A stretch of 64,000 nt of DNA from an uncultured Gammaproteobacteria bacterium (GCA_964540635.1 CAZINP010000003.1:43892-107891); one strand, 5' to 3'; counted from the first letter of the stretch, positions 22,337 through 45,769 are shown. Program-made: numbers and translations. The notes: generated from the sequence alone by a model not told the origin.

Positions 22337-22579
22337 GTGTCAGAAGTAAAACGAAAGAAAAGCGAGACTTTTGAAAGTCTTTTGCGCCGATTTCACAAGA
22401 AACTGCAGCAAAGCGGTCGTTTGATTCAAACGAGAAAAATCCGTTTTCACACTCAGGCCAAGAATCGCAACGCGGTTAAAAAAGAAGCCTTGAGACGCAA
22501 AGAAATTGGCGAAAAACGCGAATATTTGAAGAAAATCGGCAAATTGAAAGACGAATTTTCTCCAAACAGATATCGTTAA
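22337..22579 (+). CDS. rpsU: 30S ribosomal protein S21 (GTG start)
   Basis: KRKKSETFESLLRRFHKK...IRFHTQAKNRNA; strong SD AAGGAGGTG 8 nt upstream of the GTG. Confidence 0.85.
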   Translation: MSEVKRKKSETFESLLRRFHKKLQQSGRLIQTRKIRFHTQAKNRNAVKKEALRRKEIGEKREYLKKIGKLKDEFSPNRYR

Positions 22580-22643: not shown

Positions 22644-23093
22644 ATGGATATCATCAATAAATTAGAAAACGATTATACCCAGGCGTTTAAGAATAAAAAC
22701 GAGCTGGTTATTTTAGTTTTAAGGGGATTAAAAACCGCGATTACAAATGCGGAAATTGCTAAAAATCGCGAGGCTTTAACCGAATTGGAGATAATCAAAT
22801 TATTCAAAACTGAAGTAAAGAGACGAAAAGACGCGATTTTAATGTATGAAAAGGGTGGTCGCCAGGATTTGGCCGATAAAGAAAGACAGGAAGTTGAAAT
22901 TATTAGTCAATATTTGCCGGCTGAGTTGGGCGAAGATGAAATTAAGAAAAAAGTTATTGAAGTTATTGAAAAAACCGGCGCCAAAACACCCGCAGAAGCC
23001 GGAAAAGTTATCGGTGCGGTTGTTAAAGAGCTGGGCGGCAATGCCGATGGTGGTGTTGTTGGTCAAATAGTCAGATCCGAGCTTTCAAAATAG
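22644..23093 (+). CDS. yqeY: GatB/YqeY domain protein
   Basis: YqeY family pattern and the typical rpsU-yqeY synteny. Confidence 0.8.
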   Translation: MDIINKLENDYTQAFKNKNELVILVLRGLKTAITNAEIAKNREALTELEIIKLFKTEVKRRKDAILMYEKGGRQDLADKERQEVEIISQYLPAELGEDEIKKKVIEVIEKTGAKTPAEAGKVIGAVVKELGGNADGGVVGQIVRSELSK

Positions 23094-23185: not shown

Positions 23186-26100
23186 ATGTATAACTTTCAA
23201 AAAGGTTTTTGTTCCCCATTAAGAAATAAAAGGTCTAGAATCGCCCTGATTGTTTTCAGTATGGCGGTTTTATTTTTAGCCGGAATCGCCCCGGCTCTTG
23301 CTACGGACTATGGTTTAAGCTATGGCACTTATTTGGGCTTTGGGACCCAAGACTTGCGGGTTACCATCATGAATATTGTCCGGATATTTTTGGGTTTTTT
23401 GGGTATTATTGCCTTGCTTTTGGTAATTTATGCCGGTTGGCTTTGGATGAGTTCGGCGGGCAATGAAGAAAAAATTACTCAGGCCAAAAATATTTTAAGA
23501 AATACTTTGATTGGTTTGGCAATAATTATGTCAGCCTTTGCCATTGTCAGCTTTATCATTGTCATGCTTACCGGCGGCCTTGGCGGCAACGGCACGATTC
23601 CGGATGTTAACCCGCCGCCATCTGGCTGTGAAAACTGCGGCTACTTGGGGACAGGCATAATTGAAAGTGTTTACCCGGCCCCGATGTCAACTGATAATGA
23701 TCGCGATACAGCTATTATTGTTACCTTTAAAGAAGAAATCAGCCCGGATTCAGTTATTAATGGTGTATCCGCATCGGCTGTTTGCGGCGGTAATCCAAAT
23801 CCGTGCGCCGGCACTCTTAGGGAAATAAGTGGCGAGCCGGTTGTTAAGATATTTAAGCGCGCTGAAACTGAATCCGCTTTTATTCCGACGATTAACGTCA
23901 ATGTTGTTACGGTTGATAAAAAAACTTATCAATTTATCCCGCCGGTTCTAGGTGATTCAGTCAGTAAGAATTGGTATACCGTAAAGTTAACCAATGCCAT
24001 TAGCAAGGCTTCTGACGGCAGCAGTGCTTTTCCCGGTGTTAATAGTTATTTTTCATGGGATTTTGAAGTTGGCACGAAACTTGATGTTTTACCCCCAAAG
24101 ATTACCAGCGTTTTTCCTTATCCTGATAATAATGTTGATGATTATACGCCGGTGGCCGGCCAAAAAGCTCAAGGTTCTGTGGTTGTTGTTTCTCAGCCAA
24201 AAGTTAGTCGCGAACCAAGTGCAACTTTGAGTGTTATTGTTGGGGATACAGATATTGAGCTTAATGGTGTATACAATGGGACTTATGAGGGTACGGCAAC
24301 ATACACTGTTGGTCCAGACAGAACAACTGTTGGGGTTGTCTATAGTCCCACTCTAACCAATGGCGCCGCCTCATTTCCAATTGATAATATGAGAATCACT
24401 TTAGGCGTAGGTGTTAATGTTGTTTTTCAGGAAGACACCTTTGCCGCCGGCGATCAGTTTAGCATTTCTTTTGTGCCAAATACCGAAGCGGATGTTTTGC
24501 AGATTTCAAATAAAATATACAGATTTGTTTCCGGCACGCCCACGGGTGATCAAATTCAGGTTGGTTCAAATATTAATAATACGGCGGCCAATATTGCCAC
24601 CAAAATTCAAAGTGACGGCCAAGCGCCAAAGGTTAATGCCACGGCTTCAGGCGCGACGGTTAGCCTAACGGCTGATGTAGCCGGTTCGGCGGGTAATTAT
24701 ATTAATGTAGCCGGTTCCGGTACTTGGGCTACTATTACCAACTTTGGCGGCGGTGCTAATCAAACAACAAGCGCCGAATGCTCTGGTGCTTGCGATCAAC
24801 CGCGCAATTCGGTAATTAGGCTTGATTTCAGCGAAGGGATTATGCCTTCGGTTGCTTCCGGCAAAAATACAATTACCCAGGAGACAGGCTCGCCAACCGG
24901 TGTTGGTTCCGGACCAAGTTTTAATTATGTTACCGTGCAAGCTGATATAAATAATGACGGCACTTTTTCGTCTAACGAATATATTTCAGGTACATTTACC
25001 CAGAGTAATCAATATAAAACCGTTGAGTTTCTTTCTTTGCAGCCTTGTGCATCTGAGACTAGTGTTGTCACCAATTCTTGCGGTGACCCGATTTATTGTT
25101 TGCCAATCAGACCAAACGCTGACGCTACTCGCTATCGCGTGACCGTAAAGGCTTCATCGCTAAAAGGTTGTACGAATTCAAATGAGTGTTTGGGCTTAAA
25201 ATATGAAAGCGGCGAATTAACCGAAACCTGCACCACCATTCCAAAAGATAAGCAAAACCCCGCAACTACTGACAGGGCTTGCGGTAATAGTAACGGAATA
25301 TTCTATCCTAAAGCGGCAACCGCAATTGATGGTATCGCTGATTTGGCAAGTAATTCATTTGATGGTAATGGTAATGGTTTTTCTCAAGGAACCTTGACTC
25401 AAAGCTTGAGCTGGGCTTTTGCCTTGCATTTGCCAAACGTTACCCAGCGCTGTGATTTGCAGTCTTTGGCGCCGACAAATCCGGCAACAACGGGCCAGGT
25501 CGGTACTAACTGTACCGGCGATCCGGCAATTTGCATTGACGGTACCTGCCGTGATTTGGGCGATGATTTAATTTTTGATTTCTGGATTTCGAGCCGCATC
25601 GATTCCGGTTCGCCGGTAATCATAAAAGTAAATCCATCGGTGCAAGGTTCGGGTTCAAGTTTATTAAGTCCAATTTCTAGCTACTTTAATAAATTATTAA
25701 TGAGCAGCACGGTTAAATCCGGCACAGGCTATAAAGATGGTCGCTGTACTTGTACGGCTGATATTGATTGTGCGGATGCGGATCAAAAGTGTTTACCGGC
25801 CAACGGCACAGTTAAATATTGCGTAAACGTTAATAATCCTCAGATTTATTGTGCGGCCACAAATGAATGCAAAAAGACCGGTACTACTCAGGGATTTTCT
25901 CCGGCTTGTGAAACCAAGGAATACATTACGCTTGTTAACCCTACAACAATCGGTGTTGGTTGGTGGTTAAGCAATATTGGTCAAGATATTAGAATGTGTC
26001 TAAACGAAAGCAATAAATATAAAGAATGCACCGGCAATTCAGATTGCAACCCGGGTGGCGTTTGCTCTCAGGCCGACAGCTATTTTGACCGAAATTTAAT

Positions 26101-26329
26101 CCAGATAAATCACACCCGTTTTGCCGAATCAACCCAGTATGGTGCCAAGGTCGCATCGGGCGTTAAAGATATTTATCAGAATTGTTATATTCCCGGCAAA
26201 GGTCCGCAAGTGGAAAACTGTAATTATCCATATGGCACTAGTAATGGTTGTTGCGCGGTTACGGCTACAGGTGCCAATCCTCAACCGTTTTGCTGCAATG
26301 GTAATCCTCAAGACACACCTTGCAATTAG
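23186..26329 (+). CDS. giant secreted cysteine-rich surface protein 1 (1047 aa) with an N-terminal TrbC/VirB2-like pilin-type two-helix membrane module
   Basis: Signal peptide (cleavage near ALA-TDY), then two hydrophobic helices separated by SSAGNEEKITQAKN. About 1000 aa of extracellular Cys/Gly/Thr-rich sequence follows. The N-terminus is paralogous to that of the next gene. Confidence 0.8.
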   Translation: MYNFQKGFCSPLRNKRSRIALIVFSMAVLFLAGIAPALATDYGLSYGTYLGFGTQDLRVTIMNIVRIFLGFLGIIALLLVIYAGWLWMSSAGNEEKITQAKNILRNTLIGLAIIMSAFAIVSFIIVMLTGGLGGNGTIPDVNPPPSGCENCGYLGTGIIESVYPAPMSTDNDRDTAIIVTFKEEISPDSVINGVSASAVCGGNPNPCAGTLREISGEPVVKIFKRAETESAFIPTINVNVVTVDKKTYQFIPPVLGDSVSKNWYTVKLTNAISKASDGSSAFPGVNSYFSWDFEVGTKLDVLPPKITSVFPYPDNNVDDYTPVAGQKAQGSVVVVSQPKVSREPSATLSVIVGDTDIELNGVYNGTYEGTATYTVGPDRTTVGVVYSPTLTNGAASFPIDNMRITLGVGVNVVFQEDTFAAGDQFSISFVPNTEADVLQISNKIYRFVSGTPTGDQIQVGSNINNTAANIATKIQSDGQAPKVNATASGATVSLTADVAGSAGNYINVAGSGTWATITNFGGGANQTTSAECSGACDQPRNSVIRLDFSEGIMPSVASGKNTITQETGSPTGVGSGPSFNYVTVQADINNDGTFSSNEYISGTFTQSNQYKTVEFLSLQPCASETSVVTNSCGDPIYCLPIRPNADATRYRVTVKASSLKGCTNSNECLGLKYESGELTETCTTIPKDKQNPATTDRACGNSNGIFYPKAATAIDGIADLASNSFDGNGNGFSQGTLTQSLSWAFALHLPNVTQRCDLQSLAPTNPATTGQVGTNCTGDPAICIDGTCRDLGDDLIFDFWISSRIDSGSPVIIKVNPSVQGSGSSLLSPISSYFNKLLMSSTVKSGTGYKDGRCTCTADIDCADADQKCLPANGTVKYCVNVNNPQIYCAATNECKKTGTTQGFSPACETKEYITLVNPTTIGVGWWLSNIGQDIRMCLNESNKYKECTGNSDCNPGGVCSQADSYFDRNLIQINHTRFAESTQYGAKVASGVKDIYQNCYIPGKGPQVENCNYPYGTSNGCCAVTATGANPQPFCCNGNPQDTPCN

Positions 26330-26346
26330 TTTTAGCTTAAATAAGA

Positions 26347-29300
26347 ATGAAGCCTAAAACAAAAATAATCACCAAAAAAATTACTGTGCTGGCACTTTTT
26401 GCCATTGCCATTTTTGCGATTGCCCCCGTGGCTTTGGCTGCCGATTTTGGTTTGGGGTATGGGACGAATTTAGGGTTGGGTACTCAGGATTTGCGCGTGA
26501 CGATTATGAGAGTGGTTCAGGTAGCCTTAGGATTTTTAGGTATAATTGCCATCATATTGTTTATGTATGGCGGATGGCTTTATTTGTCTTCGGCCGGCAA
26601 TGAAGAAAAAATCAGCCGAGGCAAGCAAGTTTTAATTAATGCTGTTATTGGTTTGGTTATAATTTTTACTTCATTTGCCATTGTCAGTTTTATTATAAAT
26701 TTCTTGGGATCGGCAACCGGTTCCCAGCCGCCGCAGGGTTTTACATGTACGGCCAATCAATGTGTTTCTTGCGGTGTAAGGTGCAATGATACCGGCGATG
26801 GCTATGTTTCTACAAGTGATTGCTCAACCCAGGAATACTGTTCTGTCCCGCCAAACCCGGCCTGTCCGAAGCCAGATGATATTATTCCGACTATTTGCCG
26901 CATTGAGCCGGTTAGGGGAGTTGGTTTTGGTGGCGTACCTCAAGGTTACGTCGGTGATTTTGTAACAATTGAAGGTTGGTATTTAGGTATTTTTGAGTCG
27001 GGAGTCAGCCGGGTTAAATTTGATGAAACCGAGGCTTCAATTGCCACTTGTGATAACAATCCGATTTGGTATACCAACGCTAATCGCTATAGCATTATCA
27101 GGGCAATTGTCCCTTCAATTGAATTGGGTACGACAAATGTTTTAATTGAAACAAGCGCTTCTCTTACCAGCAATACAAAACCGTTTATAGTAATTGAAGG
27201 AAATCCCGGTCCCGGCTTGGCCTGCTTGATTCCGCCGAACGGAAAGAACAACGACCTTTTAACCAAAGCCGAAGGTGTTCGTTTTGGTGATGATCCGGAT
27301 ATTTTAGGTGGCTTATTCTTTAATGACAATCAAAAATCAACTTTTGTTTCTTGGTCGGATGAGATTATTAGTCAGCCAACAGTTCCGGCGAATGCGGTTT
27401 CCGGTCAGGTTTATGTTAAAGACGCTGACGGCATTCAAAGCAATGGCGTCTGGTTTACGGTTAGTTGTACCGAGAATAGCAGTTGTGCCAGTGGCTGTTG
27501 CAAGAGCTTTATGTGTCAGCCTGATTCGGCTTGCCAATCGGGCGTGGGCGAAAGTTGTGATAACGATATCAACACGACCAATTGTGAGCCCGGATCAAAT
27601 TGTGCCGATGGTTTAGTTTGTAACAGTAATAGTTGTCTTTGTGATTTACCCGGATATGATCAACCGTGTGATACAAATTTAGATTTGCCACTTTGCCAAG
27701 GTGGCAGTTGTGCGGCGGGTTATTATTGCCAAGAATCAACTTGTACCTGTCAGGAGATTCCAACTTACGGCGAGCCGATTATTTACGGCTTTACGCCAAC
27801 GAGCGGCGCAGTTGGGACTTATGTGACAATTTCCGGCGGTAATTTTGGTCCAAATAAAACTTCAGCGGCCGGTCATGTTTATTTTATTGAAGGTGCGAAT
27901 AAGGTTGAAGCCGATTATACATTAATTAAAGAATGCGCCGATACTTTTTGGCACAATACTCAAATCGTCGTTAAGGTGCCGGCCGGTTTAGTTAACGGCA
28001 ATCAATATATTATTGAGGTTGAAAATAGCGAAGGGAAATTTGATACTTCCGGCTTAAACCCCTCCGTCTTTACGGTTGATGAAAATTTAATTCGTCCGAA
28101 TATTTGTAAGATTACTCCAGACAACGGACCTATTTATCAAGATGTAGAAATCTACGGCGAAAATCTTAACCCGAGCGCTGCGCCAGTCAGCAGTGTCATA
28201 TTTTCGTCAAATGTTGTTCAGAGTAATTTCACTTTATCTACCAATGACATCTTTGCTTCTGTTCCGGCCGGGTCAGTTTCCGGTTTGGTAAAAGCTAAAA
28301 ACAGCAAAGACAATGAGAGTAATGGTTTGTATTTTCAGGTCGGTGCTTGCGTAGTTGGCGGTTGTCAGTCCGGCTATGAGTGCTGCCAGGGTGGCAGATA
28401 CAACTTAAGTTGTATGCCCGAAGGCGGTTGTTATGCGGCAGTCAGTAATTCGTCTTATGATTGGACTTTTACCACCGGCGCCAGACCGGGGAATTGTTCA
28501 AATGATTCAGGTATTTGTATTCCCAATAATGATATGTGTTCGGCCGGTTATACTTGCGATACTCAAACTTGTAATTGCACCCCAACCGGCACGTTTAATT
28601 GCAGTAATAAAGCTTATCCGGTTTGCGAGCCAAACAGTGATCTTTGTCCCGATAATCAGTTTTGCGGCGCAACTTGTACTTGTTTAGCTAAGATCCCATG
28701 CGATGGCAATGTCGCCACCCCGGCTTGTCAGCCAAGCGACGACATTTGCCGCAGTGTTGACTCAAGCCTTTCTTGTGACCCAGAGACTTGTTATTGTGAT
28801 ACCGGATTTAGCGCCACAAAGGCAGCTTATGATTGGACTTTTAATTCTTACACCGAAGGTCCGCAAGTGGTTGATGAATGTAATCGTACTCCCGAATGTG
28901 CCAAGGTTTGTGCCAACGACAGATCGATTACCTGTTCTCAAGACAGTGATTGTGGTGCTGACGGGCCGTGCATCAAAGCCTTTTCCAGTCCTTCGCCAAA
29001 GTATAATCGTGACGGTGAGGTTTATGCCAATTCTCAAATCAGCGTTAGTTTTGACCAAGAGATTCTACCAAGCACCGTTAATTCAAATACCATAAAATTG
29101 TATCGTTGCAATCAAGACTCCGGGTTTTTAAGCGCCAGTTGTTCGGTTATAACTGTTAGTAGTTATTTAGTTTTTGATTGGGATTACGGAATAATTGATG
29201 CTAATGGTGTAATCATCAACCCAGTCAACTCATTAGAAGCGGGTTATTGGTATAAAGCGGAAGTAACCGCCGGTGTCATCGGTCGCAACGGGTTTGCTGC

Positions 29301-38300: not shown

Positions 38301-41300
38301 CGCCAAGGATTGCTATAACCCAGATCAGCGCGACAGCAACGGTGATGGTCGCGGCGATGTTTGCGATCAGACATGTTCGGGCGATAAGGATGGCGATACG
38401 ATTTGTGATAACATTGATAATTGTCCGACAGTCAGAAACACCGATCAACTCGATCACGATGGCGACACAATTGGTGATGCCTGCGATCCGTGTACGGATA
38501 TGGATAGTGATGGTTATTGGGATTATAAGACAGCTGCCAATGACGAAAAAGTTTGCCCTCAAGACAATTGTTCCCCGTTCTATAACGGTTATTGCCAGAG
38601 CAGCGCCGGAGATCGAAACGGTCAACGTTGTCATTCAACCTCGGATTGCGTTGCCGGGTTTAATAATACATGTTTTATCCCATTTACCTCTTCCTTTGGT
38701 GTCTCTAATGATCGTCCAAAATATTGCATTAAAACGGTTGACGGTAAAGAGCTTTTTGCTTCAAAGGAAGTTTGTAGTACTGCTTGTCCCACCGGCTATA
38801 CTTGCAAGCAAGCCTTGGACAGTTCAACCAGGTATTTTAATCCGAACCAAGAAGATTATGATAACAGCGGTCGCGGCTATATTTGCAATGATTGTTTGGA
38901 TTATGATCAGGATGGTTTAGGTGATTGGACCTTTTATGCCAAATCAAGCGATGTCGCAACGGCCGTAAATTTAACCTTTGATCAGAAAGAACATTTTGCC
39001 GGTTGCCGAGCCGATCAAAGAGCATTTGTTGGTTTTGGGACACCGTCACCGGCGACAGATTTAGATAATTGTCCGGGTGGGCCTTATTCAAAGAAGTGCT
39101 ATGATAATTTCGGCGTGGAAACCCTCTGCTCAAATCCGCCGACAAATTGGAGTGATGAAAATAATAATAGTTATGTTAACAGCCAAGCCGATATTGATTT
39201 GAATCATTATGGTGATATCTGTGATCCTTCGGGCGACGGCCGCCTTGACCCGGGCGAGGCCTGTGATTGCGGTGATTTAGCCATTTCTCAAGATGAACAA
39301 AATCCGTTCCAATGTACAACTTTAAATGATGTAGAATGTGCGCATTCAGAAAGATATGGTGATTGCTGCAAGTATTGCGCCACTGATTTGGCCACCGGGC
39401 AGCACTACATTGCTCAATCTTGCGGTCCAAGGCTGGGAGACGGCATTGTTAATGGTAGTGAAGAGTGCGATTGCGGCGAGAACCAAATAATTCGCGACAG
39501 CATTACCGATCCGCCTAATATTGACGCTACCGCCACTTCCGGTATTTCGTGTTTGACTTTTGATACGGCCAGAACCCCCAGAACCATTTTTAATGGAATT
39601 GATTGTGGACCGATAACTCAAAACGGGGTGTTTCAGTGGAGCATGGACGGCTATTCCTGTCAGTGGTGCGATATGGGTAGAATCGAAGAAACTACCGGCC
39701 CATATTTTGGTGATGGGATAGTTGACACGGACGTTTCCGGGGGCTTGGAACAGTGCGATTGCGGTGATGCGGCGCCGATTTCTACAGATACCAACAACTC
39801 TTTCTGTGTCTATGGCACATACAATTATTATGGTGAAACCAGGACCGGCAATTATTGGACTTTAACCGAAACTGCTGTTTTATTTAATGAAACAGAGACG
39901 ATTACCAGAAATATTCCTTGTATCTCAAAATGTTCGTCGTTTAACGGCCAACCCTGCACACCACAGGAAAGATGCGATGGTGTTTGCGGGTATTGCCGGG
40001 CTAATGATACTAACACCGGTAGCATAGAAGACTATTCCGGTCATCTGTGCCTGCCGTGTTCATCAGTAGAATGCAATTCAATTTGCATTAACTTACCAAA
40101 TGACGGTTGTTGCCGTGATGGAGAAACAGCTGATAATGAATATGGCTGTCCGTTTAAGGTGGGTGATCAAATTTTAATAAAAACACGAGAAAATAATACT
40201 GCTTGCGGATCAAACGAAGATAAGCCGTGGTGTCACCCTTCAATTTTCTTGAAAGCTAAGACGCGTTTGGCAACCGATCCGGGGATTTTTGGCGACGGTA
40301 CCTCGGCTTCACCATTTTATTTCTTTAAGGTTTTACCTGGAGATGAAGATGACTGTCGAGTGAACAATAATCGAATTCCTGAATTGGGCAGTGACGTAAA
40401 AACCGGGGATTGTATTAAATTTGAAATTACTTCGATTAATGGTAAAAACAAGGTTTCGATTGGTTCGGACGGCTGGATAACGGTTGGGGATAATTTCGCC
40501 AGCTGGGTTATTAACATTGTTGACGGTATGCCGCTGAAGGTTGGTAGTATAATCTCATTGAAACAGGCTGGTCAGAGTGATGATAAATTTTGGTCAACCA
40601 GGTGGAAAAATGTTGTTACGCTTTTTGGCGAGGATACTCCTGTGGGCACGGCAGATAAGGATCAGGACTGGGAAAAATTTAAAATTTGCAATCGTGCAAA
40701 TATTTGTTCAAACCAGGAGCTTATTCAAGAAACGTGTACGCCGCCCGCCACCGGTGAAGTGGATTCGTGTGCAAATAAATATACCGGCTGCCACCGTTGC
40801 GTAGCAATATCTGAAAACTTAAATATTTGTAGTGAGTACAATTATACTTGGAATCCGGACTTAGTTATAACACCAATTTTGCTGTGCTCTGGTGCTAATC
40901 GTGACTATTGTTGTAATGAGTCTTTGTGTAACGGCAATCCTAATGATTCAGCTAAATATGATATTGATTGTGACGGCGTAAAAATAAATGAGCCAATCAG
41001 TTTGAATGCCGTAGTAGAAAGTAATGGTGTTGATGGTTTTGAATTTTTAACCGGTGGAACAAACTCTTCTGATTATGTTCACACGAAAGGAACTGGTGAA
41101 AACCTTACAAATTATAGGTTTGTGGCAGCTATTTCTCGTGCCTGCAGATCCGATCGGGATACTGTCATAAGAATGCCCGGGGCAGGTAATGCCGTTACTG
41201 GTGGTGGGGACGATAATATTCGTGACGGGGACTGCATTTCGCTTGAAGCTAATGCCGGCGCCTTGGTTATGAACGATGAAAGCTTTTGGAATAATAAAAA

Positions 41301-43260
41301 ATGGTTACGAAGCGAAAAAGACGGTATGAATGGAGATGTAATTACCAGAGAATTTAGTGTGTATAATTATACAGCCAGAGAAAACGGCATAGATGATGCA
41401 AACATTTCTTATGGAGATATTATTGGTTTTTATGAAATTCGCAGCCCTTATGGATATGGCGCCTGGTGGCAAAATTTTTATCCGGACGAGGGGGGTAAAA
41501 TTGGTAATAATCCGACGGAAGGCTGGTGGAGCACTCCAATGAATGACTGGTCAAGAAAATTTAAAGTTTGTAAAGCTGATGGCGTCTGCGCACCTATATG
41601 TGATGTTGTTAACAGTAAAGTTTCCGGTTGCCCTGAGCCTCAAGGCTGCTATATTTGTCAAGATCCAGGCGCTTGGTCTTCTATTTGTTTGCCAAACCCG
41701 ACTTATACTTACGGTTCTTACACTTGTGGCGTGAGAGAGGACAATTCTTTATGCGCCGGCGTAATTGGTGAGGATAATTGTTGCGTCTCCGGGGAGTCAT
41801 GGTTGCAAGATCGCGCCTGTCCTTTAACTGACGGTTCACAGATCTCAATGAAGGATGATCATTCTTATTCTGCTGGTTTGCGAGTATTTTTAGCTGCGGG
41901 CAATAATAATGGGGCTGATTCCATCTCTGGCTGTGGTGGTCCTGGTGAGGAGTGGGATTGGCGCGCCATTAGATTAAGCGTAACAGATGATGCAAAGTTT
42001 ACAGTTGAGAAGTGTGATAAATATAAGGCAGGCTGCACAGCTGTTAATCCAAAGGGTCCAATTCGTTATGGTGAAATAGTAAGAATCAAGAGTAATAGAA
42101 ATTATTGCCCGGCAGTTGAGGCAGAGACAGGAGTATTTTCTGGGGAAGAGGTTGATGTGGAGTTTGGTGATGGCGTTGCCGCATACTTTAAGCTTTGCAG
42201 TGCGGTGGTTGGCGGAAATTGTGCGCAGAGAGATGATGATATTAATAGTTTAAATTCTTATCCTTATATAAGAAAAGGCGATAAGGTTTACCTGGAAAGG
42301 GCGTCTTGGAATCAAGCAAACAATTGGTGGGCTGGAAATGGAAAATATATAGATTTAAATGAACACAGTGAAGATATAAATGATACTCAGGGCGACAAGG
42401 ATAATAAAAATCCAGTATTATTAAGTTCTGGAAGCGGCGAAGGTTTATTTGTTTGCGACTCAACATTAAATCAATCAAACTGTTATTGCAGGGAATATCC
42501 CGGTACGATAGTTTGTGGGGCAGAATGCAAAGCACCACAGACAAAACCGGCCGATGATTATTGTAATACTTATGTTCCTAATTCTGCCAGACCCGAATGT
42601 GACGGTTGGCATGCTGTCAGTACCGGTAAGCCGGAGTGTGGTCCCTGCAGTGAGTCAAACTGCCAATTGTATTGCGCTAATGCTGACAACGACGGTTGTT
42701 GTAAGGGTAGTGAAACTATCAGCAATGAGTATGCTTGCCCGATCTTATCGGGTAGTGATGTAATTTTATATTCGGTTGGTGGCGGTACTTATATTGATAG
42801 GTATAACGATTGGTATACCTTAGATGCTGATTCCGCTGTGGTTACTAGAATTATGGAAACTACCGGCGGTCGAGACCAAAACTTTACGGTTCATAATTTG
42901 GCAATTTTTGATGGCGCATTTTTTGAGATGGTCGGAGACAATGAGGATAGCCGTATTTGTAATAGAAAATCACTCCATTGGTGGTTGGCGTGGACATCAT
43001 GTGATAATAGTCAGTTTAAACTTCATTTGGTATCTGATTCAAGGCCTGGTATCGCCGGGATTCAACCGGGGTCTATTATTGGCTTGGAAACCGGGACTGA
43101 TACTCCAACTAATCGCAAGTGTTATAGGGTTAGGACAAGCGCCAACTCTAGCAGTTGGGCCGGGTATTTTGATGGCGTTGATTGTCCAACATGGAACGCA
43201 AGCACCGATAATACTTTCTTATTTATCATTCAGGCCAGTAATGGCAATCAAGCTCCTTAA
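26347..43260 (+). CDS. giant secreted cysteine-rich multidomain surface protein 2 (5637 aa, 16.9 kb) with the same pilin-type N-terminal module
   Basis: Uninterrupted 16.9-kb ORF in AT-rich DNA. Domains read from the translation: pilin-like N-terminus; 3 IPT/TIG-like domains; about 13 CGNGxxExGEECD Cys-rich repeats; LamG/ConA-like and CBM-like beta-sandwich domains; Ig-like modules ending YSWVFKT; thrombospondin type 3 repeats (DNCPTVRNTDQLDHDGDTIGDACD); a triplicated C-terminal module. Confidence 0.85.
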   Translation: MKPKTKIITKKITVLALFAIAIFAIAPVALAADFGLGYGTNLGLGTQDLRVTIMRVVQVALGFLGIIAIILFMYGGWLYLSSAGNEEKISRGKQVLINAVIGLVIIFTSFAIVSFIINFLGSATGSQPPQGFTCTANQCVSCGVRCNDTGDGYVSTSDCSTQEYCSVPPNPACPKPDDIIPTICRIEPVRGVGFGGVPQGYVGDFVTIEGWYLGIFESGVSRVKFDETEASIATCDNNPIWYTNANRYSIIRAIVPSIELGTTNVLIETSASLTSNTKPFIVIEGNPGPGLACLIPPNGKNNDLLTKAEGVRFGDDPDILGGLFFNDNQKSTFVSWSDEIISQPTVPANAVSGQVYVKDADGIQSNGVWFTVSCTENSSCASGCCKSFMCQPDSACQSGVGESCDNDINTTNCEPGSNCADGLVCNSNSCLCDLPGYDQPCDTNLDLPLCQGGSCAAGYYCQESTCTCQEIPTYGEPIIYGFTPTSGAVGTYVTISGGNFGPNKTSAAGHVYFIEGANKVEADYTLIKECADTFWHNTQIVVKVPAGLVNGNQYIIEVENSEGKFDTSGLNPSVFTVDENLIRPNICKITPDNGPIYQDVEIYGENLNPSAAPVSSVIFSSNVVQSNFTLSTNDIFASVPAGSVSGLVKAKNSKDNESNGLYFQVGACVVGGCQSGYECCQGGRYNLSCMPEGGCYAAVSNSSYDWTFTTGARPGNCSNDSGICIPNNDMCSAGYTCDTQTCNCTPTGTFNCSNKAYPVCEPNSDLCPDNQFCGATCTCLAKIPCDGNVATPACQPSDDICRSVDSSLSCDPETCYCDTGFSATKAAYDWTFNSYTEGPQVVDECNRTPECAKVCANDRSITCSQDSDCGADGPCIKAFSSPSPKYNRDGEVYANSQISVSFDQEILPSTVNSNTIKLYRCNQDSGFLSASCSVITVSSYLVFDWDYGIIDANGVIINPVNSLEAGYWYKAEVTAGVIGRNGFAAAPYSWLFKIKAGTGSVGCATCQPGYATLFARYDGNCSGVGDPDCQPYLGQAWDQDHVCVMLKPETLTWNWNLLNETDKRASIFNRATSQPAYPNDEDAYLSSVSGQGFDVIDVYARKETLTNPVKVATEINGLPSQAYQYGENICDLSVDLSTPIVVKRWPDCNGACTNASVGAAFSIPMNSSSITASGAVVLYACADNANCRPGYGVCSVTGNYCNAAKGTGCGTGETCQALDYDQVSVPLNFNQLGAVVNGYANSYLADSPCFDINADGKTDYCLLPNTYYRVILRNTIEATNGKKLGKLNYDDALYNGLSELGIKDSYSWVFRTQDNMCAPGRISVQPEERHMSIYEVQKYASYPYTSPDSCDAQGQPLIAASFVWEWQSKYCQIADLFSSSYGGYLNTHTFFAVPPGCTKVTSQYATLRSGCGNGVVGLGEDCDDGNIFNQDGCSSTCLNEGVSTMPNYNFSFDGIPTISSNTNEFPFESTSFSLLRNYPLNGTARSGFGSSQNLGVNNSGVIYAQSDNGRSGLMRDNWVSADHYFVSANIKLPQNTENINDVGLIFGYLSNNSNYFAAIWSSLGYSAMADYQQLKIIKAASGLPQSVANTQKIPADQNWHEIKVEVINYDFSADIKLYFDDNLYLTYKSNTRVVGNAGIYAYDTDGQVLFDNLKIYGDDLPICGNGILEKGEECEKDQAGNFGPYCTLGCLNSGNAASGAVCGNGVVEPGEECDNGNEPNNNEADGCTNTCILSGFTLSNMCGNGIVDKGEACDNGDFTRYTCLNNPSQVCDPNDDTACGNQKALCTNRAKSGDGCTGYYQSVAFPENISGHSCSTMTETQCKTFSETSSDNHAKYCYWTGTECRIRPCISETSTAQGNDRYDISICGNGLVEAGEECDYGSLCQTSYGGVARCTSLNASTVCASGICGQGVCQAKTSTGYITNQYVACTEENAGDLCYSGSCELPANSYLPGCTSNCLNAGSVSDNRSHQIAQGLADGQTEVQAWTSEFKPSSGGPMGIGKLFVGAWGQPEDFYVIDQWPNCFTACLNADIGAQFSQYVNTASLTTSDNIKLYECRTDSGCNLANATKISGLSVIPFTIKTNSDNRIDAVQLLLPNSYNPVNHDNNPSTAPIPALLPDSYYRVVISKNVRTDSNPPKNLQYLNFNDPTVGSGTENDSYSWVFKTQNKNNFCALSSVKVLPQTWQMFTGNKRQLYFSRPISKPDECSVNGQLLNPFYFDWRWDDVEMSQDNGNFINGADILIDTLDEFLKKVINGGTLPTTPPTAGGYLKDGCGNGVVEFGEDCDPGLQSIEGCSNTCQHAGSGACSPTVSTNCCGNSIIEPGEECEPFVNGGFCTSNGLLCDPFLDPNSCPGGTCLYLCDSRCRFAGNTNTQANCGDGVISPIEICDGKLGDDSDGCSDYCQPSGAVPATGSTCGNGIIEKGEECDGGELASGNIPLSFDGNNCSGIKNKTGVSGGCTNYSTETQCQSWKGCYWSGNECKHRPCIIENRNVAVCRNSENLSVDFKQNYNACKPGYTSIFLNTLTGTSLTNRPVCGNGVVEPGEECDLGGWCIDEETNNFKTCTTYNAVGCRNNICLTYSYYCSVDGLPIDGATTLGACSAEGICDSNKNCVVAGPGGSEIEYPKSTCTTIGAACSISGTGYVNGCSSNCVYNGSRYDDGINDPYQIVQSVGVFSNTVLTEVNEEIRAWHALQPDRVGVGELTILASANVPFTVVGHQPKARGLDPTNQCRNVGIWAILSRPLDATSVTAENLYLGKQGVEDNLIKSYSVLPVSGSCNENHRCVYPGAEDSPLETSYCYVNSDCVGSKIVINEIEGVYLDGNSSYVLRFKQSLKAQDGSNLQELNYSDQDLKNYTIWGFDTSADFCSCNYVGVNILNTTGQAFTTKDYFTCAGDNCGSNTYKVLFDDDYKPKAMCRLSGQEAKFACDTSKSAVDQCGTGGTCSLYSAMAGNQHLYNANCYDTEYSEGTDIPVGLGTAYDFAEIDPQKLIYLTGVDEKTVDCTNVNGQCLVTPGDNQVPAGKNGDSQVMVSGKQYMDNNNQICTPTEANAQTCLLRRSAHQTIDITNFICDNPWPALGSFPYTDSNASGNSPTNSVTPYYNFTMYYCRDYGKEGFDDDLPSLNINGPVFGSRGDVLKEFLFPVGTDVVINAPGSPKRGVDFLSNDCTQAGMGGIVPSNTDAYRCNVNSHFRYKFTGVEKGYYKLVYQTYNYGSGSMNSLDLYGLKMCDKNKNGYINTGGATGETTPCNTQADCASLGTGIACLPVTQEIDVYHVNVNDTVPIARISAIPRAYDNMQSNEVPVLLEAGDHTFRFRWINDWNVTVDGKYYDSNLIINKVSLIKVENEATSDAIGLRILPNTLHLSASTWYNTGLCGAQVGSGVENICYSNNDCAGINLFKNANFEDTTKPWVYEYNTLSPNVYHNQPGEIIAGGRSGKADKLAGQSTVTTWGYQIKYPSPFDLPAGNYVYSAWIKSQDGGKVGITVQETTGWSHLCSNKDCTIRGDSVVCANTDNEWHKVTCTFSLAKKTQVQMAVRADDEAKTFLVDDVSLTTGCNFNLPSRGTAQPLTFDGYNAASDGRSLYVNATNFNGTNLFSNIFLLSYTQNASESTKEIFRRLSDQTNTLGGLSFNANMTSHRLCSGVGLYEKTSFICNQVGVATDCRGYNSQSLCESEANLKNGCYWSETDKICSGRMCLPIYCQSDKDCPNLICDNQKGGAVRDNLRFGNLRDMQLTLERSYKSNGSYPKLSAGTYIASTTFAVWPSWQATLGSGIGSTLPSDPLNYFTGCVASYCDTNENGTLETAETTSCLPYNVTSCNNKPQNCLPTEVDPDRVKTCWDEKAKEFSCPQEMYTYAYRSSEGGKEYELYTNFEFITSGWVSNATGYQLPFYGTQECKKLNFEIHQTRDRVSTPIEDSSCAIKHCWGASGILTGLRDGWTYGQNNTNDCEGTRPACPSGYRCTGDADSDGVCDEGLSDNCAPLLMCSANAKDCYNPDQRDSNGDGRGDVCDQTCSGDKDGDTICDNIDNCPTVRNTDQLDHDGDTIGDACDPCTDMDSDGYWDYKTAANDEKVCPQDNCSPFYNGYCQSSAGDRNGQRCHSTSDCVAGFNNTCFIPFTSSFGVSNDRPKYCIKTVDGKELFASKEVCSTACPTGYTCKQALDSSTRYFNPNQEDYDNSGRGYICNDCLDYDQDGLGDWTFYAKSSDVATAVNLTFDQKEHFAGCRADQRAFVGFGTPSPATDLDNCPGGPYSKKCYDNFGVETLCSNPPTNWSDENNNSYVNSQADIDLNHYGDICDPSGDGRLDPGEACDCGDLAISQDEQNPFQCTTLNDVECAHSERYGDCCKYCATDLATGQHYIAQSCGPRLGDGIVNGSEECDCGENQIIRDSITDPPNIDATATSGISCLTFDTARTPRTIFNGIDCGPITQNGVFQWSMDGYSCQWCDMGRIEETTGPYFGDGIVDTDVSGGLEQCDCGDAAPISTDTNNSFCVYGTYNYYGETRTGNYWTLTETAVLFNETETITRNIPCISKCSSFNGQPCTPQERCDGVCGYCRANDTNTGSIEDYSGHLCLPCSSVECNSICINLPNDGCCRDGETADNEYGCPFKVGDQILIKTRENNTACGSNEDKPWCHPSIFLKAKTRLATDPGIFGDGTSASPFYFFKVLPGDEDDCRVNNNRIPELGSDVKTGDCIKFEITSINGKNKVSIGSDGWITVGDNFASWVINIVDGMPLKVGSIISLKQAGQSDDKFWSTRWKNVVTLFGEDTPVGTADKDQDWEKFKICNRANICSNQELIQETCTPPATGEVDSCANKYTGCHRCVAISENLNICSEYNYTWNPDLVITPILLCSGANRDYCCNESLCNGNPNDSAKYDIDCDGVKINEPISLNAVVESNGVDGFEFLTGGTNSSDYVHTKGTGENLTNYRFVAAISRACRSDRDTVIRMPGAGNAVTGGGDDNIRDGDCISLEANAGALVMNDESFWNNKKWLRSEKDGMNGDVITREFSVYNYTARENGIDDANISYGDIIGFYEIRSPYGYGAWWQNFYPDEGGKIGNNPTEGWWSTPMNDWSRKFKVCKADGVCAPICDVVNSKVSGCPEPQGCYICQDPGAWSSICLPNPTYTYGSYTCGVREDNSLCAGVIGEDNCCVSGESWLQDRACPLTDGSQISMKDDHSYSAGLRVFLAAGNNNGADSISGCGGPGEEWDWRAIRLSVTDDAKFTVEKCDKYKAGCTAVNPKGPIRYGEIVRIKSNRNYCPAVEAETGVFSGEEVDVEFGDGVAAYFKLCSAVVGGNCAQRDDDINSLNSYPYIRKGDKVYLERASWNQANNWWAGNGKYIDLNEHSEDINDTQGDKDNKNPVLLSSGSGEGLFVCDSTLNQSNCYCREYPGTIVCGAECKAPQTKPADDYCNTYVPNSARPECDGWHAVSTGKPECGPCSESNCQLYCANADNDGCCKGSETISNEYACPILSGSDVILYSVGGGTYIDRYNDWYTLDADSAVVTRIMETTGGRDQNFTVHNLAIFDGAFFEMVGDNEDSRICNRKSLHWWLAWTSCDNSQFKLHLVSDSRPGIAGIQPGSIIGLETGTDTPTNRKCYRVRTSANSSSWAGYFDGVDCPTWNASTDNTFLFIIQASNGNQAP

Positions 43261-43286
43261 TTTTAAAATATTTAATTATATTAATT

Positions 43287-44033
43287 ATGTTTGACCAACC
43301 ATTAAATCCAAATTCTAATCAAAATTCACAACCACAGCCGCCGATGGCGGGCGCGGGTTCGCCTATGCCCAAAAGAGAAATGTTTGACGAGCCGGAAGAT
43401 ATTTTGGGCGATGTTGATCGCATTCAACCGGCTAAACCCCAAGTCCCAAGACCGACGGTTTCTGCTTTTGGCACCAAACCAAGCCCAATTTTAAATCCGT
43501 TAGCTGCCACGCCAGCCATGCCGATGGAGAAAAAATCATCCGGCCTTGGGTTTTTAGCTAACTGGAAAAAGATTTTAGTGGTAATTGTCGGGATCGTTGT
43601 TGTTGGCGGTTTTTTAAGTGCGGCGGGTTATTATGCATTTTCGTTTATTTCTAATTTAACCGCCTCAAAACAACCCGTGGTTAACGTTAATCAAAACACC
43701 AATGCCTCAGTTCCGGTTAATGTTAATACTAATGCTGGCGTCGTTGATCAAACGCCGACCCAGCCCTCAGTAGTTGACACCCAACCGGAAGTAGCAGTTG
43801 ATACCGATAAAGACGGCTTGCTTGATTCAGAAGAAAGATTATATGGCACTGATATAACCAAAGCCGATACTGACAATGATGGCTTAACTGACAGGGACGA
43901 GGTTAAAGTCTTTAAGACCGATCCAAATAATCCGGATACGGACGGAGATACTTATATAGACGGCAAGGAGGTTTTATCTGGTTATGATCCCAAAGGACCG
44001 GGTAAGCTTTTAAAGATCCCGACTGAAGAATAA
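43287..44033 (+). CDS. small type-II membrane protein with TSP3-like Ca-binding repeats (paralog A)
   Basis: Pro-rich N-terminus, one TM (ILVVIVGIVVVGGFL), then DTDKDGLLDSEERLYGTDITKADTDNDGLTDRDEV...DTDGDTYIDGKEVLSGYDPKGPG. Confidence 0.5.
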   Translation: MFDQPLNPNSNQNSQPQPPMAGAGSPMPKREMFDEPEDILGDVDRIQPAKPQVPRPTVSAFGTKPSPILNPLAATPAMPMEKKSSGLGFLANWKKILVVIVGIVVVGGFLSAAGYYAFSFISNLTASKQPVVNVNQNTNASVPVNVNTNAGVVDQTPTQPSVVDTQPEVAVDTDKDGLLDSEERLYGTDITKADTDNDGLTDRDEVKVFKTDPNNPDTDGDTYIDGKEVLSGYDPKGPGKLLKIPTEE

Positions 44034-44085
44034 GGGAGAAGATCACAAATTTCAACTTGCAAGTCCCAACATTGGTATTTAGGTG

Positions 44086-44174
44086 CTTGGAACTTGATAA
44101 GAGTTTAAGATTTGTAATTTGGAATTTGTTTGGACCTTGTTATTTGATGCTTGGAATTTATTTTTGGAATTTTT
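44086..44174. repeat. five direct copies of TTGGAAYTT-like motif in the intergenic region
   Basis: cttggaacttg, atttggaatttg, tttggaccttg, cttggaattta and tttggaattttt within 90 bp upstream of the 44210 CDS. Confidence 0.35.
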
Positions 44175-44209
44175 AATTTATTTTCCCACAACCTACTCAC
44201 TAATACTTT

Positions 44210-45175
44210 ATGTTTTTCAAACCGAAAAAAAAACCGGAAATCACTCCGGAAAAAGAAGCCTCAGAAAAGCTGGATCAGAATTTGATCAAGCAAGTTCATG
44301 TTATGCCCTCACGTTATTATCTGCCACCCAAAAAAAGCAATTTGGGTTTGGTTGTTATGATTATCATTGGTTTATTGATAATTTTGGTTTTAGCCGTTGC
44401 CGCCTTTTATTTAAATGAAACCTTAAAAAAAGCTTCACAGTCTAATGTTGTTCAAACTCAAACACAAGAGATGACTGAAGTGGTGCCAGAGCCGCAAGTT
44501 CAGGTGCCGGTTGAAGAAGTCCTTGAGCCAACCACTACGCCGGAGCTCATTGAGCAGCCGCTTGAACCAACCAGCACCCCAGCCGTAGAAGAGGAGAAAG
44601 AAGAGGAGCCGGCATCGGTTGGACCGTCGGTTGATTCTGATAATGATAATTTAAGTGATGCCGAAGAAGCGCTCTTGGGCACTAACCCTAAAAATTCTGA
44701 TACGGATAGTGACGGCTACCCGGATGGAAGCGAAGTGCTTTCCGGATATGACCCCAAGCTAGCCAATAAGAAATTATCCGCTTCCGGTCTTTTTAATAAT
44801 TATAGCAACGATCAATTTTTAACGATTTATCCGACCACTTGGCGCACAAGAGAGAATGATAATACCGGCTCGGAAGTTTTATTCATCTCCGGCAGCGGCC
44901 AATTTTTTGAAGTTCTAGTCCTTGATAATCCGGCTGAATTAAGTTTGAGTGAATGGTTGAATTCGGAATTTGAGCAGAATTTGCCCCAGACCATTGCCCA
45001 AAAAGTTAACGAGTTTGATGTTTTAAAGGAAGCAGACGGTTTGACATACTATTTAATGAATCCGGCATCTCCGGAAAAGATTTATCTTTTGACTTACAAT
45101 ATTGGCAGTGCTACCCAGGCCGATTATACAACGTTGTTTGTTACCATGGTAAAAAATTTCAAGCAAGTTAAATAG
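44210..45175 (+). CDS. small type-II membrane protein with TSP3-like Ca-binding repeats (paralog B)
   Basis: Basic N-terminus, one TM, acidic/Pro-rich linker, DSDNDNLSDAEEALLGTNPKNSDTDSDGYPDGSEVLSGYDPK, then a ~150-aa C-terminal domain. Confidence 0.5.
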   Translation: MFFKPKKKPEITPEKEASEKLDQNLIKQVHVMPSRYYLPPKKSNLGLVVMIIIGLLIILVLAVAAFYLNETLKKASQSNVVQTQTQEMTEVVPEPQVQVPVEEVLEPTTTPELIEQPLEPTSTPAVEEEKEEEPASVGPSVDSDNDNLSDAEEALLGTNPKNSDTDSDGYPDGSEVLSGYDPKLANKKLSASGLFNNYSNDQFLTIYPTTWRTRENDNTGSEVLFISGSGQFFEVLVLDNPAELSLSEWLNSEFEQNLPQTIAQKVNEFDVLKEADGLTYYLMNPASPEKIYLLTYNIGSATQADYTTLFVTMVKNFKQVK

Positions 45176-45177: not shown

Positions 45178-45606
45178 ATGAAAATTGATTTTTCTGTTAA
45201 TCAGCAAAGCGGTCCCAAAATTCCAGTTAGTTTTTGGCAAAAATCATGCAAAAAAATAGAGAAAAATATTAAGATAAAGTCAAAAGTGGAAGTTTCAATT
45301 GCCGTAATCGGTTCGGATAAGATAAGAACCTTAAATAGAATGTATCGCAAGAAAGACAAGCCAACAGATGTTTTGAGTTTTGAAGCAGTCAAGGATTTTA
45401 GGGGTAGAGATTATCTTGGAGAAGTGATTATTTGTTATCCCAAGGCGCTATCACAGGCCAAAAAGAGGGGAGTAAATGTTTTAGCCGAGATTGAGTTTTT
45501 GCTTGTACACGGTTTTTTGCACTTGATTGGTTTTGATCATCAAAATTTAGCGGAAGAAAAGAAGATGGACGTGCTTCATGAAAAAATTATAAAAACAAAA
45601 ATATAA
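45178..45606 (+). CDS. ybeY: rRNA maturation endoribonuclease YbeY
   Basis: HGFLHLIGFDH zinc-binding H3xH5xH motif; 142 aa. Confidence 0.85.
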   Translation: MKIDFSVNQQSGPKIPVSFWQKSCKKIEKNIKIKSKVEVSIAVIGSDKIRTLNRMYRKKDKPTDVLSFEAVKDFRGRDYLGEVIICYPKALSQAKKRGVNVLAEIEFLLVHGFLHLIGFDHQNLAEEKKMDVLHEKIIKTKI

Positions 45607-45769
45607 AATAAAAACAAAATTACAAGTTAAAAGTCACAAATTTTTTAAGTTTGAGATTTTAAATTTGTAATTTATTTATTTACTTTGAATATTTCACTTT
45701 TTGTGTTAAAATAATTAATATCAAAATTGACTTTTCCCCAATTCAGGGGTGAGGCAATAACCTAAAATT

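Follow-up and report, generated by a model that had tools for sequence, protein, structure and literature searches.

A candidate cell-surface cassette of Patescibacteria of the class ABY1, with two proteins headed by VirB2-type pilins, one conserved and the other giant and variable

Introduction

To our knowledge, the attachment of most Patescibacteria to their partners is unexplained, and outside Saccharibacteria we know of almost no cultures and of no genetics. Here we analyse a locus located at positions 23186 to 45175 of a stretch of DNA of 64,000 nucleotides (GCA_964540635.1, CAZINP010000003.1:43892-107891), hereafter called the window, whose positions are counted from its first letter. 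This locus is formed by two tandem genes for large proteins of 1047 and 5637 amino acids (aa), both starting with a pilin-like head (genes 1 and 2), and by two genes for small membrane proteins (genes 3 and 4). Based on the comparison with related genomes, we read it as an expanded copy of a four-gene cell-surface cassette placed between rpsU-yqeY and ybeY-ftsA-ftsZ.

The heads of the two large proteins have in common with the canonical conjugative pilins (TrbC/VirB2/TraA, PF04956) a signal peptide, two hydrophobic helices and a short charged loop. Canonical conjugative pilins are small, and some of them are C-terminally processed or cyclised, which is incompatible with the retention of a giant C-terminal domain. 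The VirB2-like pilins of the patescibacterial type IV secretion system (T4SS) (PF18895; PMC10633639, PMC12102498) have the same signature as the N-terminal 125-135 aa of the large proteins, with the same layout of signal peptide and two helices and the same loop. These pilins are free proteins of ~120-150 aa, often arrayed, which in many classes lie beside virB4. Unlike them, the cassette heads carry a C-terminal extension of 900-5500 aa and are found in a housekeeping setting, far from T4SS genes.

A pilin-type module or a tip position bearing a large binding domain is found in the type IVb minor pilins CofB/TcpB and in the T4SS adhesins VirB5/PrgB. Their design idea (a low-copy protein, beside or apart from the major pilin) is like that of the cassette; their pilin fold and assembly machine are unrelated to those of the cassette, and no sequence or fold similarity turned up. 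Giant adhesins (SiiE, those of the Bap/LapA type and a 7651-aa Mobiluncus adhesin, PMC10619420) resemble the product of gene 2 in their size of several thousand residues, in their immunoglobulin-like (Ig-like) and Ca-binding modules and in being extracellular. Unlike these adhesins, gene 2 has neither an array of near-identical tandem repeats nor a C-terminal sortase motif or hydrophobic tail, and it combines an N-terminal pilin-hairpin anchor with a very high cysteine content. The giant proteins of Omnitrophota (bioRxiv 10.1101/2023.11.21.568195) are similar in size, but their SecA-like or multiple transmembrane regions are absent from gene 2. Finally, the Pam pili of Saccharimonadia and Microgenomatia (bioRxiv 10.64898/2026.03.03.709456) are surface filaments specific to ultra-small bacteria and contain Ig-like domains; they were rejected as relatives of the cassette because their pilins have a plain signal peptide and no pilin hairpin, are assembled by donor-strand exchange with membrane-anchored chaperones and belong to other classes.

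The pilin family and the patescibacterial T4SS pilins are, as such, already known (PMC10633639, PMC12102498, PMC12857230), and databases label single members of the cassette as "pilin", "TrbC/VirB2 family protein" or "Ig-like domain-containing protein". In the patescibacterial pilin and T4SS literature that we searched, we found no account of VirB2-type pilins fused to giant ectodomains, nor of a conserved four-gene cassette or of the co-variation of two heads. Because a relative of gene 1 is encoded in at least 571 species genomes, because the position is a housekeeping one, because a conserved head and stalk are paired with a variable partner and because pilins are here joined to giant proteins, the cassette is a concrete candidate for the main surface attachment or envelope structure of a large uncultured class. 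It links the recently recognised, essential patescibacterial VirB2-like pilins to giant surface proteins and shows that C-terminal cargo of very large size can be borne by pilins of the VirB2 type, a point relevant to pilin handling in monoderm cells. Additionally, it provides defined targets for cryo-electron tomography and metaproteomics of groundwater ABY1 populations.

Results and Discussion

The pilin heads

The two large genes and their heads are located as follows.

23186..26329, + strand: gene 1, open reading frame (ORF) of 1047 aa; pilin head and conserved ectodomain of Ig-like beta domains, described from homologues, an AlphaFold2 model and a fold search
23186..23302, + strand: signal peptide of gene 1 (aa 1-39), with predicted cleavage between ALA and TD; hydrophobic segment at aa 16-41
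23303..23584, + strand: mature pilin head of gene 1 (aa 40-133), matching PF18895; two membrane helices joined by a conserved loop, SSAGNEEKITQAK
26347..43260, + strand: gene 2, intact ORF of 5637 aa (library protein P0262); pilin-headed, acidic, cysteine-rich giant with a variable ectodomain
26347..26721, + strand: signal peptide (aa 1-31, cleavage between ALA and AD) and pilin head (aa 32-125) of gene 2, matching PF18895

According to hydropathy, each large protein contains exactly three hydrophobic segments, all of them N-terminal and none later in the chain. In both heads, a signal peptide with an AxA site makes up the first segment, and the other two are membrane helices, joined by the loop SSAGNEEKI(T/S)..(A/G)K; this is the layout (signal peptide, two helices, short charged loop) that a preliminary description of the window had proposed for both proteins, and it is hereby confirmed. 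The heads are 58% identical over 113 aa, and BLASTP found no shared sequence between the two proteins beyond them. In the AlphaFold2 model of gene 1, the helices (57-88 and 94-129) form a hairpin, and A39, at the predicted cleavage site, is invariant across 42 homologues. No third pilin head was found in the window.

The preliminary description had also recognised in the N-terminal module the topology of conjugative TrbC/VirB2 pilins and had suggested a profile search against a T4SS-pilin-like family. Both heads exceed the gathering score (26.6 bits) of the Pfam family T4SS_pilin (PF18895), with 34.1 bits for gene 1 and 30.8-31.7 bits for gene 2. The TrbC/VirB2 profile (PF04956) aligns over its full length with the gene 2 head, although weakly (E = 0.09; 13.4 bits, below the gathering threshold of 27.9), precomputed TrbC matches are on record for many gene 1 homologues, and the heads have a sub-threshold match to the NCBIfam model "Mbov_0395 pilin-like conjugal transfer protein". 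A search with the head only returned 114 proteins, nearly all of them free PF18895 pilins of 110-150 aa from Patescibacteria (including Buchananbacteria), with 45-60% identity to the head; for the gene 2 head, the same range of identity (45-60%) is found with free pilins of 119-130 aa. When aligned with 19 free pilins, the heads match them end to end, from the signal peptide through the terminal "ATG" of the free pilins, and the extracellular region of the large proteins starts where the free pilins end. LGFLG, G84, G92 and IGL are invariant in the heads and in these 19 pilins. Genes 1 and 2 therefore encode whole pilins with C-terminal extensions, and we read their N-terminal modules as VirB2-type pilins, by homology as well as by topology, in agreement with the preliminary description. 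Neither large protein is itself a free-standing pilin of 110-150 aa, the pilin being the N-terminal 125-135 aa of 1047 and 5637 aa.

The mature head is the most conserved segment of gene 1: in the 42 homologues, the mean frequency of the commonest residue is 0.66-0.72 in the mature head and 0.37-0.49 in the ectodomain. Moreover, the two heads co-vary. The mean identity between the gene 1 and gene 2 heads of one genome is 0.58, whereas orthologous heads of different genomes have a mean identity of 0.43-0.44; of 10,804 orthologue comparisons, 94% give a lower value than the within-genome pair, which exceeds more than 90% of them in 65 of 74 genomes. As the ectodomains show, the divergence between genes 1 and 2 predates that of these genomes.

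The family to which the heads belong is very large: a search with the pilin profile yielded 77,410 cluster representatives at E <= 0.001, and 26,331 remain at E <= 1e-10. Three architectures occur in the 150 best matches: free pilins, proteins of 487-6028 aa with one head at the N-terminus (21 of the 150) and chains of 2-17 tandem hairpins behind one signal peptide (many of them among P0201-P0342). P0201, for example, has six hairpin units in 552 aa, and the longest series, 17 units, occupies 1775 aa. Such "poly-pilins", of which P0201 and P0213 were read, seem to be true fusions and not merged gene calls, because their internal units have no signal peptides. It follows from the tandem chains that both termini of a hairpin lie on one side of the membrane, that the hairpins sit side by side and that the family tolerates continuation at the C-terminus.

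Conservation of the cassette among relatives

Relatives were found by scanning one genome per species (the source of the count of at least 571 given above), and in the 80 best loci the ORFs were called and classified with the window proteins. A second pilin-headed gene lies directly 3' of the gene 1 orthologue in 69 of the 73 loci with enough downstream sequence. The gene order is lepB-hisS-rpsU-(yqeY)-gene 1-gene 2-[TSP3 protein]-[TSP3 and PsbP-like protein]-ybeY-ftsA-ftsZ, and the part that follows gene 2 (TSP3 gene, gene 4 orthologue, ybeY, ftsA and ftsZ) was found in 31 of the 40 loci with a complete gene 2 and enough room. The four genes are thus found together in related genomes, in answer to the concern, raised in the preliminary description, that the small genes might be unlinked to the giant ones. 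All six of the locus-bearing genomes that could be classified belong to the Patescibacteria class ABY1 (Buchananbacteria, Falkowbacteria and relatives).

Gene 1 is conserved, its orthologues being 556-1115 aa long (median 899), whereas gene 2 is hypervariable in length (496 to more than 6000 aa, a more than ten-fold range) and in domain content. Complete gene 2 orthologues have 496-3385 aa (median 1971), several others leave their contig at more than 3450 aa, and Buchananbacteria-type relatives reach 5756 and 6028 aa.

In one further locus (L092 1-11520), the rpsU-yqeY region is broken into short ORFs (among them a pilin of 151 aa, Big_5 proteins of 235 and 269 aa, and a pilin with Big_5 of 210 aa), most likely as a result of frameshift errors in the assembly or as a decaying copy. 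P0140 and P0148 were considered as genuine short proteins and rejected, being fragments of a frameshifted copy of this cassette locus.

The gene 1 ectodomain

The 65 close homologues of gene 1 all come from Patescibacteria, and PF18895 and Big_5 are present in nearly all of them. Its AlphaFold2 model (predicted local distance difference test, pLDDT, 81; predicted TM-score, pTM, 0.70) consists of a helical hairpin followed by an all-beta chain, and its best fold matches are the S-layer protein SbsC and chains of Ig-like domains. Since the TM-scores to SbsC are very low (0.09-0.12), this match would reflect a generic chain of Ig-like domains, and the extracellular region of gene 1 is predicted to be a conserved chain of such beta domains, ~900 aa long. 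Sequence searches of the PDB with gene 1, with the first 4999 aa of gene 2 and with the pilin profile yielded either thrombospondin repeats alone or no match.

The giant protein encoded by gene 2

The product of gene 2 contains 334 cysteines (5.9%), and its acidic residues exceed the basic ones by ~290. Domains above threshold are TIG (three copies), Big_5, the cysteine repeats DUF4215/TIGR02232 and TSP_3. The following parts were distinguished.

26884..29322, + strand: core common to ordinary-sized gene 2 orthologues (aa ~180-992), with cysteine-rich linkers, three TIG/IPT domains and Big_5
29764..34446, + strand: diverged internal duplication of a super-module (aa ~1140-1990 and ~2016-2700), with Big_5-like domains and myxo-type cysteine-rich acidic repeats
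35524..35766, + strand: "NPWP...YYCRD...DDLP" module (aa ~3060-3140), 40% identical to gene 2 of L053 and L007
37009..37986, + strand: counterpart (aa ~3555-3880), fused into the giant, of a "third gene" that stands separately in other genomes, by its match to an L053 protein
38194..38526, + strand: thrombospondin type-3 Ca-binding repeats (aa ~3950-4060), Pfam TSP_3, 30.6 bits against a threshold of 25
39034..43257, + strand: lineage-specific C-terminal 1400 aa, with no family assignment

The core (TIG 34.5 bits against 20.9; Big_5 at aa 890-992) aligns with gene 2 of L053, L007 and L063. When chunks of 200 aa were compared with each other by BLASTP in search of internal repeats, 21 off-diagonal matches with 27-43% identity were obtained, which correspond to the one diverged super-module duplication; no tandem array of near-identical repeats was found. 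TIGR02232 (74.6 bits) covers four stretches of the giant and DUF4215 was also found; neither aa 1800-2700 nor aa 4230-5637 has a Pfam match. The partners of the NPWP module lie at aa 1615-1683 of the L053 gene 2 (1949 aa in total) and at aa 1776-1862 of the L007 gene 2, that is, in the C-terminal part of ordinary orthologues. The region after it is homologous to part of a protein encoded separately in L053 (18527..21442), which is 971 aa long and cysteine-rich, has a hydrophobic N-terminus read as a signal peptide (cleavage between AGKA and AEG) and does not match the pilin head; its aa 73-315 match aa 3561-3876 of the giant (E = 4e-23). A gap of 2.7-4.3 kb separates gene 2 from the TSP3 gene in eleven loci: L053, in which alone the content of the gap was read, and L025, L033, L039, L046, L050, L052, L056, L061, L075 and L087.

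The TSP_3 region, with DxDxDG motifs at aa 3961 and 4051, matches the PDB chains of COMP and thrombospondin (E = 2e-13), and thrombospondin repeats were the only matches of a PDB sequence search with the first 4999 aa of gene 2. A Pfam search with aa 4501-5637 gave nothing at E <= 1, and within the C-terminal 1400 aa only aa 4227-4473 are common to the sister giant in L004. According to the alignments with orthologues, the giant is an ordinary gene 2 up to the NPWP module (~aa 3140) to which the third gene has been fused, with the internal duplication and the lineage-specific C-terminal 1400 aa as further additions; its disulfide-rich extracellular region has thereby reached ~5500 aa. The possibility that this 17-kb ORF is an artefact was discarded, given that orthologues of 4717-6028 aa exist.

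Part of the domain list given for the giants in the preliminary description could be recovered, namely TIG, TSP_3 and the myxo-type cysteine repeats; CBM_4_9 stays below threshold in gene 2 (22.1 against 25.9) and Laminin_G_3 was not detected by the Pfam search in the gene 2 of the window, whereas the orthologous giants of L003 and L004 have recorded matches to it. The view that the large regions are extracellular and adhesin-like is supported by the hydropathy, by the content in cysteine, TIG, Big_5 and TSP_3, by the Ig-like model and by the fold matches. Neither large protein has an LPxTG motif near the C-terminus or a C-terminal hydrophobic segment.

The small membrane proteins

Genes 3 and 4 encode bitopic membrane proteins.

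43287..44033, + strand: gene 3, 248 aa, with two bacterial TSP3 repeats; C-terminal end EVLSGYDPKGPGKL
44210..45175, + strand: gene 4, 321 aa, described from a family alignment, AlphaFold2 and Foldseek
44777-45172, + strand: PsbP-like domain of gene 4 (aa 190-321), from Foldseek

Both proteins have one membrane helix (in gene 3, the single hydrophobic segment at aa 86-121), an SGYDPK motif and no cysteine, and both exceed the threshold of 25 bits of TSP3_bac (Pfam PF18884), with 43.6 bits for gene 3 and 28.2 bits for gene 4; the DxDxDG-type motifs are located at aa 172 and 194 of gene 3 and at aa 142 and 164 of gene 4. They had previously been described as two small Ca-binding paralogs. The TSP3 repeats and the shared VLSGYDPK motif are confirmed, but the word paralogous overstates the relation, since their sole common stretch is one of 49 aa (TSP3 and VLSGYDPK, 57% identity) and they are otherwise different proteins, each with its own conserved orthologues. 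Gene 3 terminates right behind the VLSGYDPK motif. In the gene 4 family, a conserved cytoplasmic motif, Q-I/V-H-x-M-P-x-R-F/Y-Y, precedes the membrane helix, after which come a disordered linker, the TSP3 pair and finally a domain of 130 aa at the C-terminus. The AlphaFold2 model of gene 4 has a pLDDT above 90 over aa 140-320, and its C-terminal domain, which has no Pfam match at the sequence level, matches PsbP chains and BT_1490 (Foldseek probability 1.0, E 5e-5 to 1e-3). These 130 aa have the fold of the PsbP/Mog1-like extracytoplasmic domains; unlike PsbP and BT_1490, the gene 4 domain is tethered through a membrane helix and TSP3 repeats.

Proposed model and alternatives

The model that we tentatively favour is a class-wide, pilin-anchored surface complex, made of a conserved Ig-like stalk and a variable cysteine-rich binding protein whose heads associate laterally. 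In this model, both large proteins would be exported by Sec and cut by signal peptidase after ALA, and the head would insert as a hairpin with both termini outside, leaving the fused region to project from the cell; the outward projection is expected because there are a signal peptide, an even number of helices and no later hydrophobic segment. The two heads, co-evolving in each genome, would pack against each other, and probably also with free pilins of ~120 aa encoded elsewhere, and a surface fibre or complex would have in them its base, embedded in the membrane, or its nucleus. Gene 1 would give the conserved stalk and gene 2 a variable, Ca-dependent surface for the binding of a partner cell or substrate, while genes 3 and 4 may be membrane-tethered Ca-binding accessory or assembly factors. 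The cassette may have an adhesin or host-attachment role.

Several points weigh against this model. The pilin profile matches no solved pilin in the PDB and fold searches with the head return generic helical hairpins only, and since no solved pilin or specific fold was matched, the link to VirB2 rests on the Pfam profile, the weak TrbC match and the sub-threshold NCBIfam profile. The binding function of gene 2 is one that we infer from its domain types only. The similarity of the heads within a genome could come from periodic gene conversion between neighbouring paralogues and not from a need to co-assemble. In the window, the head-coding stretches have 71% DNA identity and their longest identical run is 17 nucleotides (nt), for which reason we see no recent conversion tract there; the similarity would then reflect either older conversion or selection for matching heads. 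Additionally, four loci (L028, L040, L041 and L045) have no second pilin-headed gene in the ~10 kb downstream of the gene 1 orthologue, which in L040 is followed by nine unrelated ORFs of 165-808 aa; the other three come from an automated screen. Loss of the cassette could explain these four, as could a paralogous copy located at another genomic site.

An alternative that we consider possible, although unlikely, is that the large proteins are adhesins mounted on a pilus: a T4SS of the VirB4 type, encoded elsewhere, would extract the heads from the membrane and build them, as minor or tip subunits, into a filament made mostly of free pilins of ~120 aa, and the giant regions would be displayed at the tip or along the shaft, filling the role of a VirB5/PrgB-type adhesin. 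The heads are full members of the free-pilin family and keep all of its invariant residues, and several published data fit this idea. VirB4 is listed in Table S1 of PMC12102498 (where Buchananbacteria and Falkowbacteria are put in the GTDB class ABY1) for all six of the locus-bearing ABY1 genomes cross-referenced (GCA_013359225.1, GCA_001817425.1, GCA_000992395.1, GCA_000999715.1, GCA_001780275.1 and GCA_001778135.1). The same work found no PrgB-type adhesin in Patescibacteria (PMC12102498), and Southlakia cannot grow epibiotically without its patescibacterial T4SS pilins (PMC10633639; PMC12857230).

The surroundings of the genes fit this alternative less well. No T4SS or type IV pilus machinery is encoded in the 64-kb window, and no T4SS genes were found within +/-10 kb of the related loci whose called genes were inspected. 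The same genomes also encode, at other sites, free pilins with ~50% identity to the heads; those closest to the head of the giant likewise have no VirB4 within 10 kb, and in the Table S3 rows of two ABY1 genomes the VirB2-type matches are all flagged as not near virB4 (PMC12102498). A location of the closest free pilins beside VirB4 was rejected; they occupy a conserved locus of their own. In this locus (L089 7601-13000, L091 7574-12428), a protein of 742-754 aa with weak EccB-like and Ig-like matches lies on the opposite strand; next come the pilin, a membrane protein of ~200 aa resembling MS channels and, in some cases, a second pilin, and then a Wzy_C-type protein and a flippase for polysaccharides. 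The free pilin P0125, which shares a contig of 922 kb with the L055 cassette at a distance of ~200 kb, does not, in this one case, resemble the heads of its own genome more than the heads found in related genomes, which also argues against a common filament. Furthermore, a patescibacterial T4SS pilus is not known to have been observed directly, and an appendage of 5500 aa on a lattice subunit is sterically feasible only at the tip or at very low occupancy.

The lack of machinery nearby had earlier been taken as an opening for a new surface apparatus. The absence itself stands for the window, but with VirB4 elsewhere in six of six genomes and with free pilins that are remote as well, machinery-free surroundings are a weak argument for a new apparatus. 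The distance from the machinery says little either way, and nothing ties the cassette directly to a T4SS. The more specific proposal that ABY1 bacteria use the pilin as a mounting module, with both pilin-headed proteins nucleating or capping a T4SS-assembled filament of free pilins, also seems to us rather unlikely. If true, it would mean that monoderm bacteria lacking VirB5 and PrgB have a pilus tip which bears a conserved stalk and a hypervariable giant adhesin, and that a class-wide host-attachment organelle is encoded within a cluster of ribosome and cell-division genes.

Still less probable is the reuse of the pilin hairpin as a plain two-helix membrane anchor of independent adhesins, with no assembly and no link to a secretion machine. 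The topology would be sufficient for anchoring, machinery is absent nearby, and the head behaves as a portable module, as can be seen from the 77,410 cluster representatives and from the single-head proteins among the best matches. Nevertheless, a mere anchor should drift freely, whereas no part of gene 1 is better conserved than the head with its short loop, which moreover retains the residues invariant among pilins and co-varies with the head of its neighbour. Finally, we very much doubt that the proteins are constitutive components of an S-layer-like or envelope scaffold, tethered by the pilin hairpin and not devices for attachment. In favour of such a scaffold, nearly all of the relatives sampled have the cassette, which probably shares a transcript with rpsU, yqeY and ybeY beside ftsA/ftsZ and encodes Ca-binding modules of a kind able to add lattice stability. 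Against it, the TM-scores to SbsC are as low as given above, profile searches found no SLH or other S-layer anchoring domain, and the more than ten-fold length range and changing domains of gene 2 fit a diversifying binding protein better than a lattice subunit.

Genomic setting of the locus

The locus is flanked by core genes on both sides, with hisS, rpsU and yqeY upstream and ybeY, ftsA and ftsZ downstream.

22182..22205, + strand: strong terminator-like hairpin 3' of hisS, with 6 GC pairs in its 10-bp stem and 8 consecutive T after it; consensus match only
22253..22293, + strand: three overlapping sigma-70-like promoter matches 5' of rpsU, 10/12 each; consensus scan only
22337..22579, + strand: rpsU, by homology to the Ribosomal_S21 genes of syntenic loci
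22644..23093, + strand: yqeY, Pfam YqeY
45178..48220, + strand: ybeY, ftsA and ftsZ, by Pfam and synteny

The intergenic gaps are 17 nt between genes 1 and 2, 26 nt between genes 2 and 3, 176 nt between genes 3 and 4 and 2 nt between gene 4 and ybeY. The hairpin is the probable end of the upstream transcription unit, and the promoter matches are a candidate start of a unit comprising rpsU, yqeY, the four cassette genes and ybeY. No convincing + strand terminator was found in the scanned stretches 22000-27000 and 42800-46200, the interior of gene 2 (27001-42799) lying outside the scan. Taken together, the consensus scans and the gaps are consistent with a co-transcription of the cassette with rpsU, yqeY and ybeY. 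The stop of gene 4 is only 2 nt ahead of the ybeY start, and the spacing is equally tight in related loci such as L004 and L031. It is probable that the last cassette gene and ybeY, which encodes an rRNA-maturation nuclease, are coupled in translation.

The arrangement rpsU-yqeY ... ybeY-dgkA is a conserved neighbourhood in Bacillus too, and dgkA comes after ybeY in L006 and L007. The cassette looks like an old insertion within this housekeeping cluster. The preliminary description had placed it in a core, non-mobile neighbourhood between yqeY and ybeY/ftsAZ, and both the flanks and the synteny agree with that view; an origin as a mobile element was rejected, given the core flanks, the lack of a break in composition and the same position in 69 of the 73 informative loci.

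Elsewhere in the window, positions 48400-57610 encode, in this order, a ribonucleotide reductase carrying a TSCPD domain, a cation ATPase of the P type (50933..53485), CobO (a corrinoid adenosyltransferase), a protein of 608 aa with prenyltransferase-like and DUF4430 parts, a second DUF4430 protein and a DUF6580 protein. This region looks like a cluster for the uptake and handling of cobalamin near a reductase that is probably B12-dependent. Upstream of the locus, the TTG start of the ORF for a glycerophosphodiester phosphodiesterase (GDPD, 19348-20175) overlaps tRNA-Val(CAC) (19333-19409), and its true start is probably ~100 nt further downstream, because the homologues are 241 aa long. Close to the start of the window lie parA and parB (3076-4737), and the cumulative GC skew climbs steadily through the window. 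A protein of 323 aa with AAA and AAA_lid_9 domains (6596-7567) resembles a short fragment of the Clp/Hsp100 type or a minimal paralogue.

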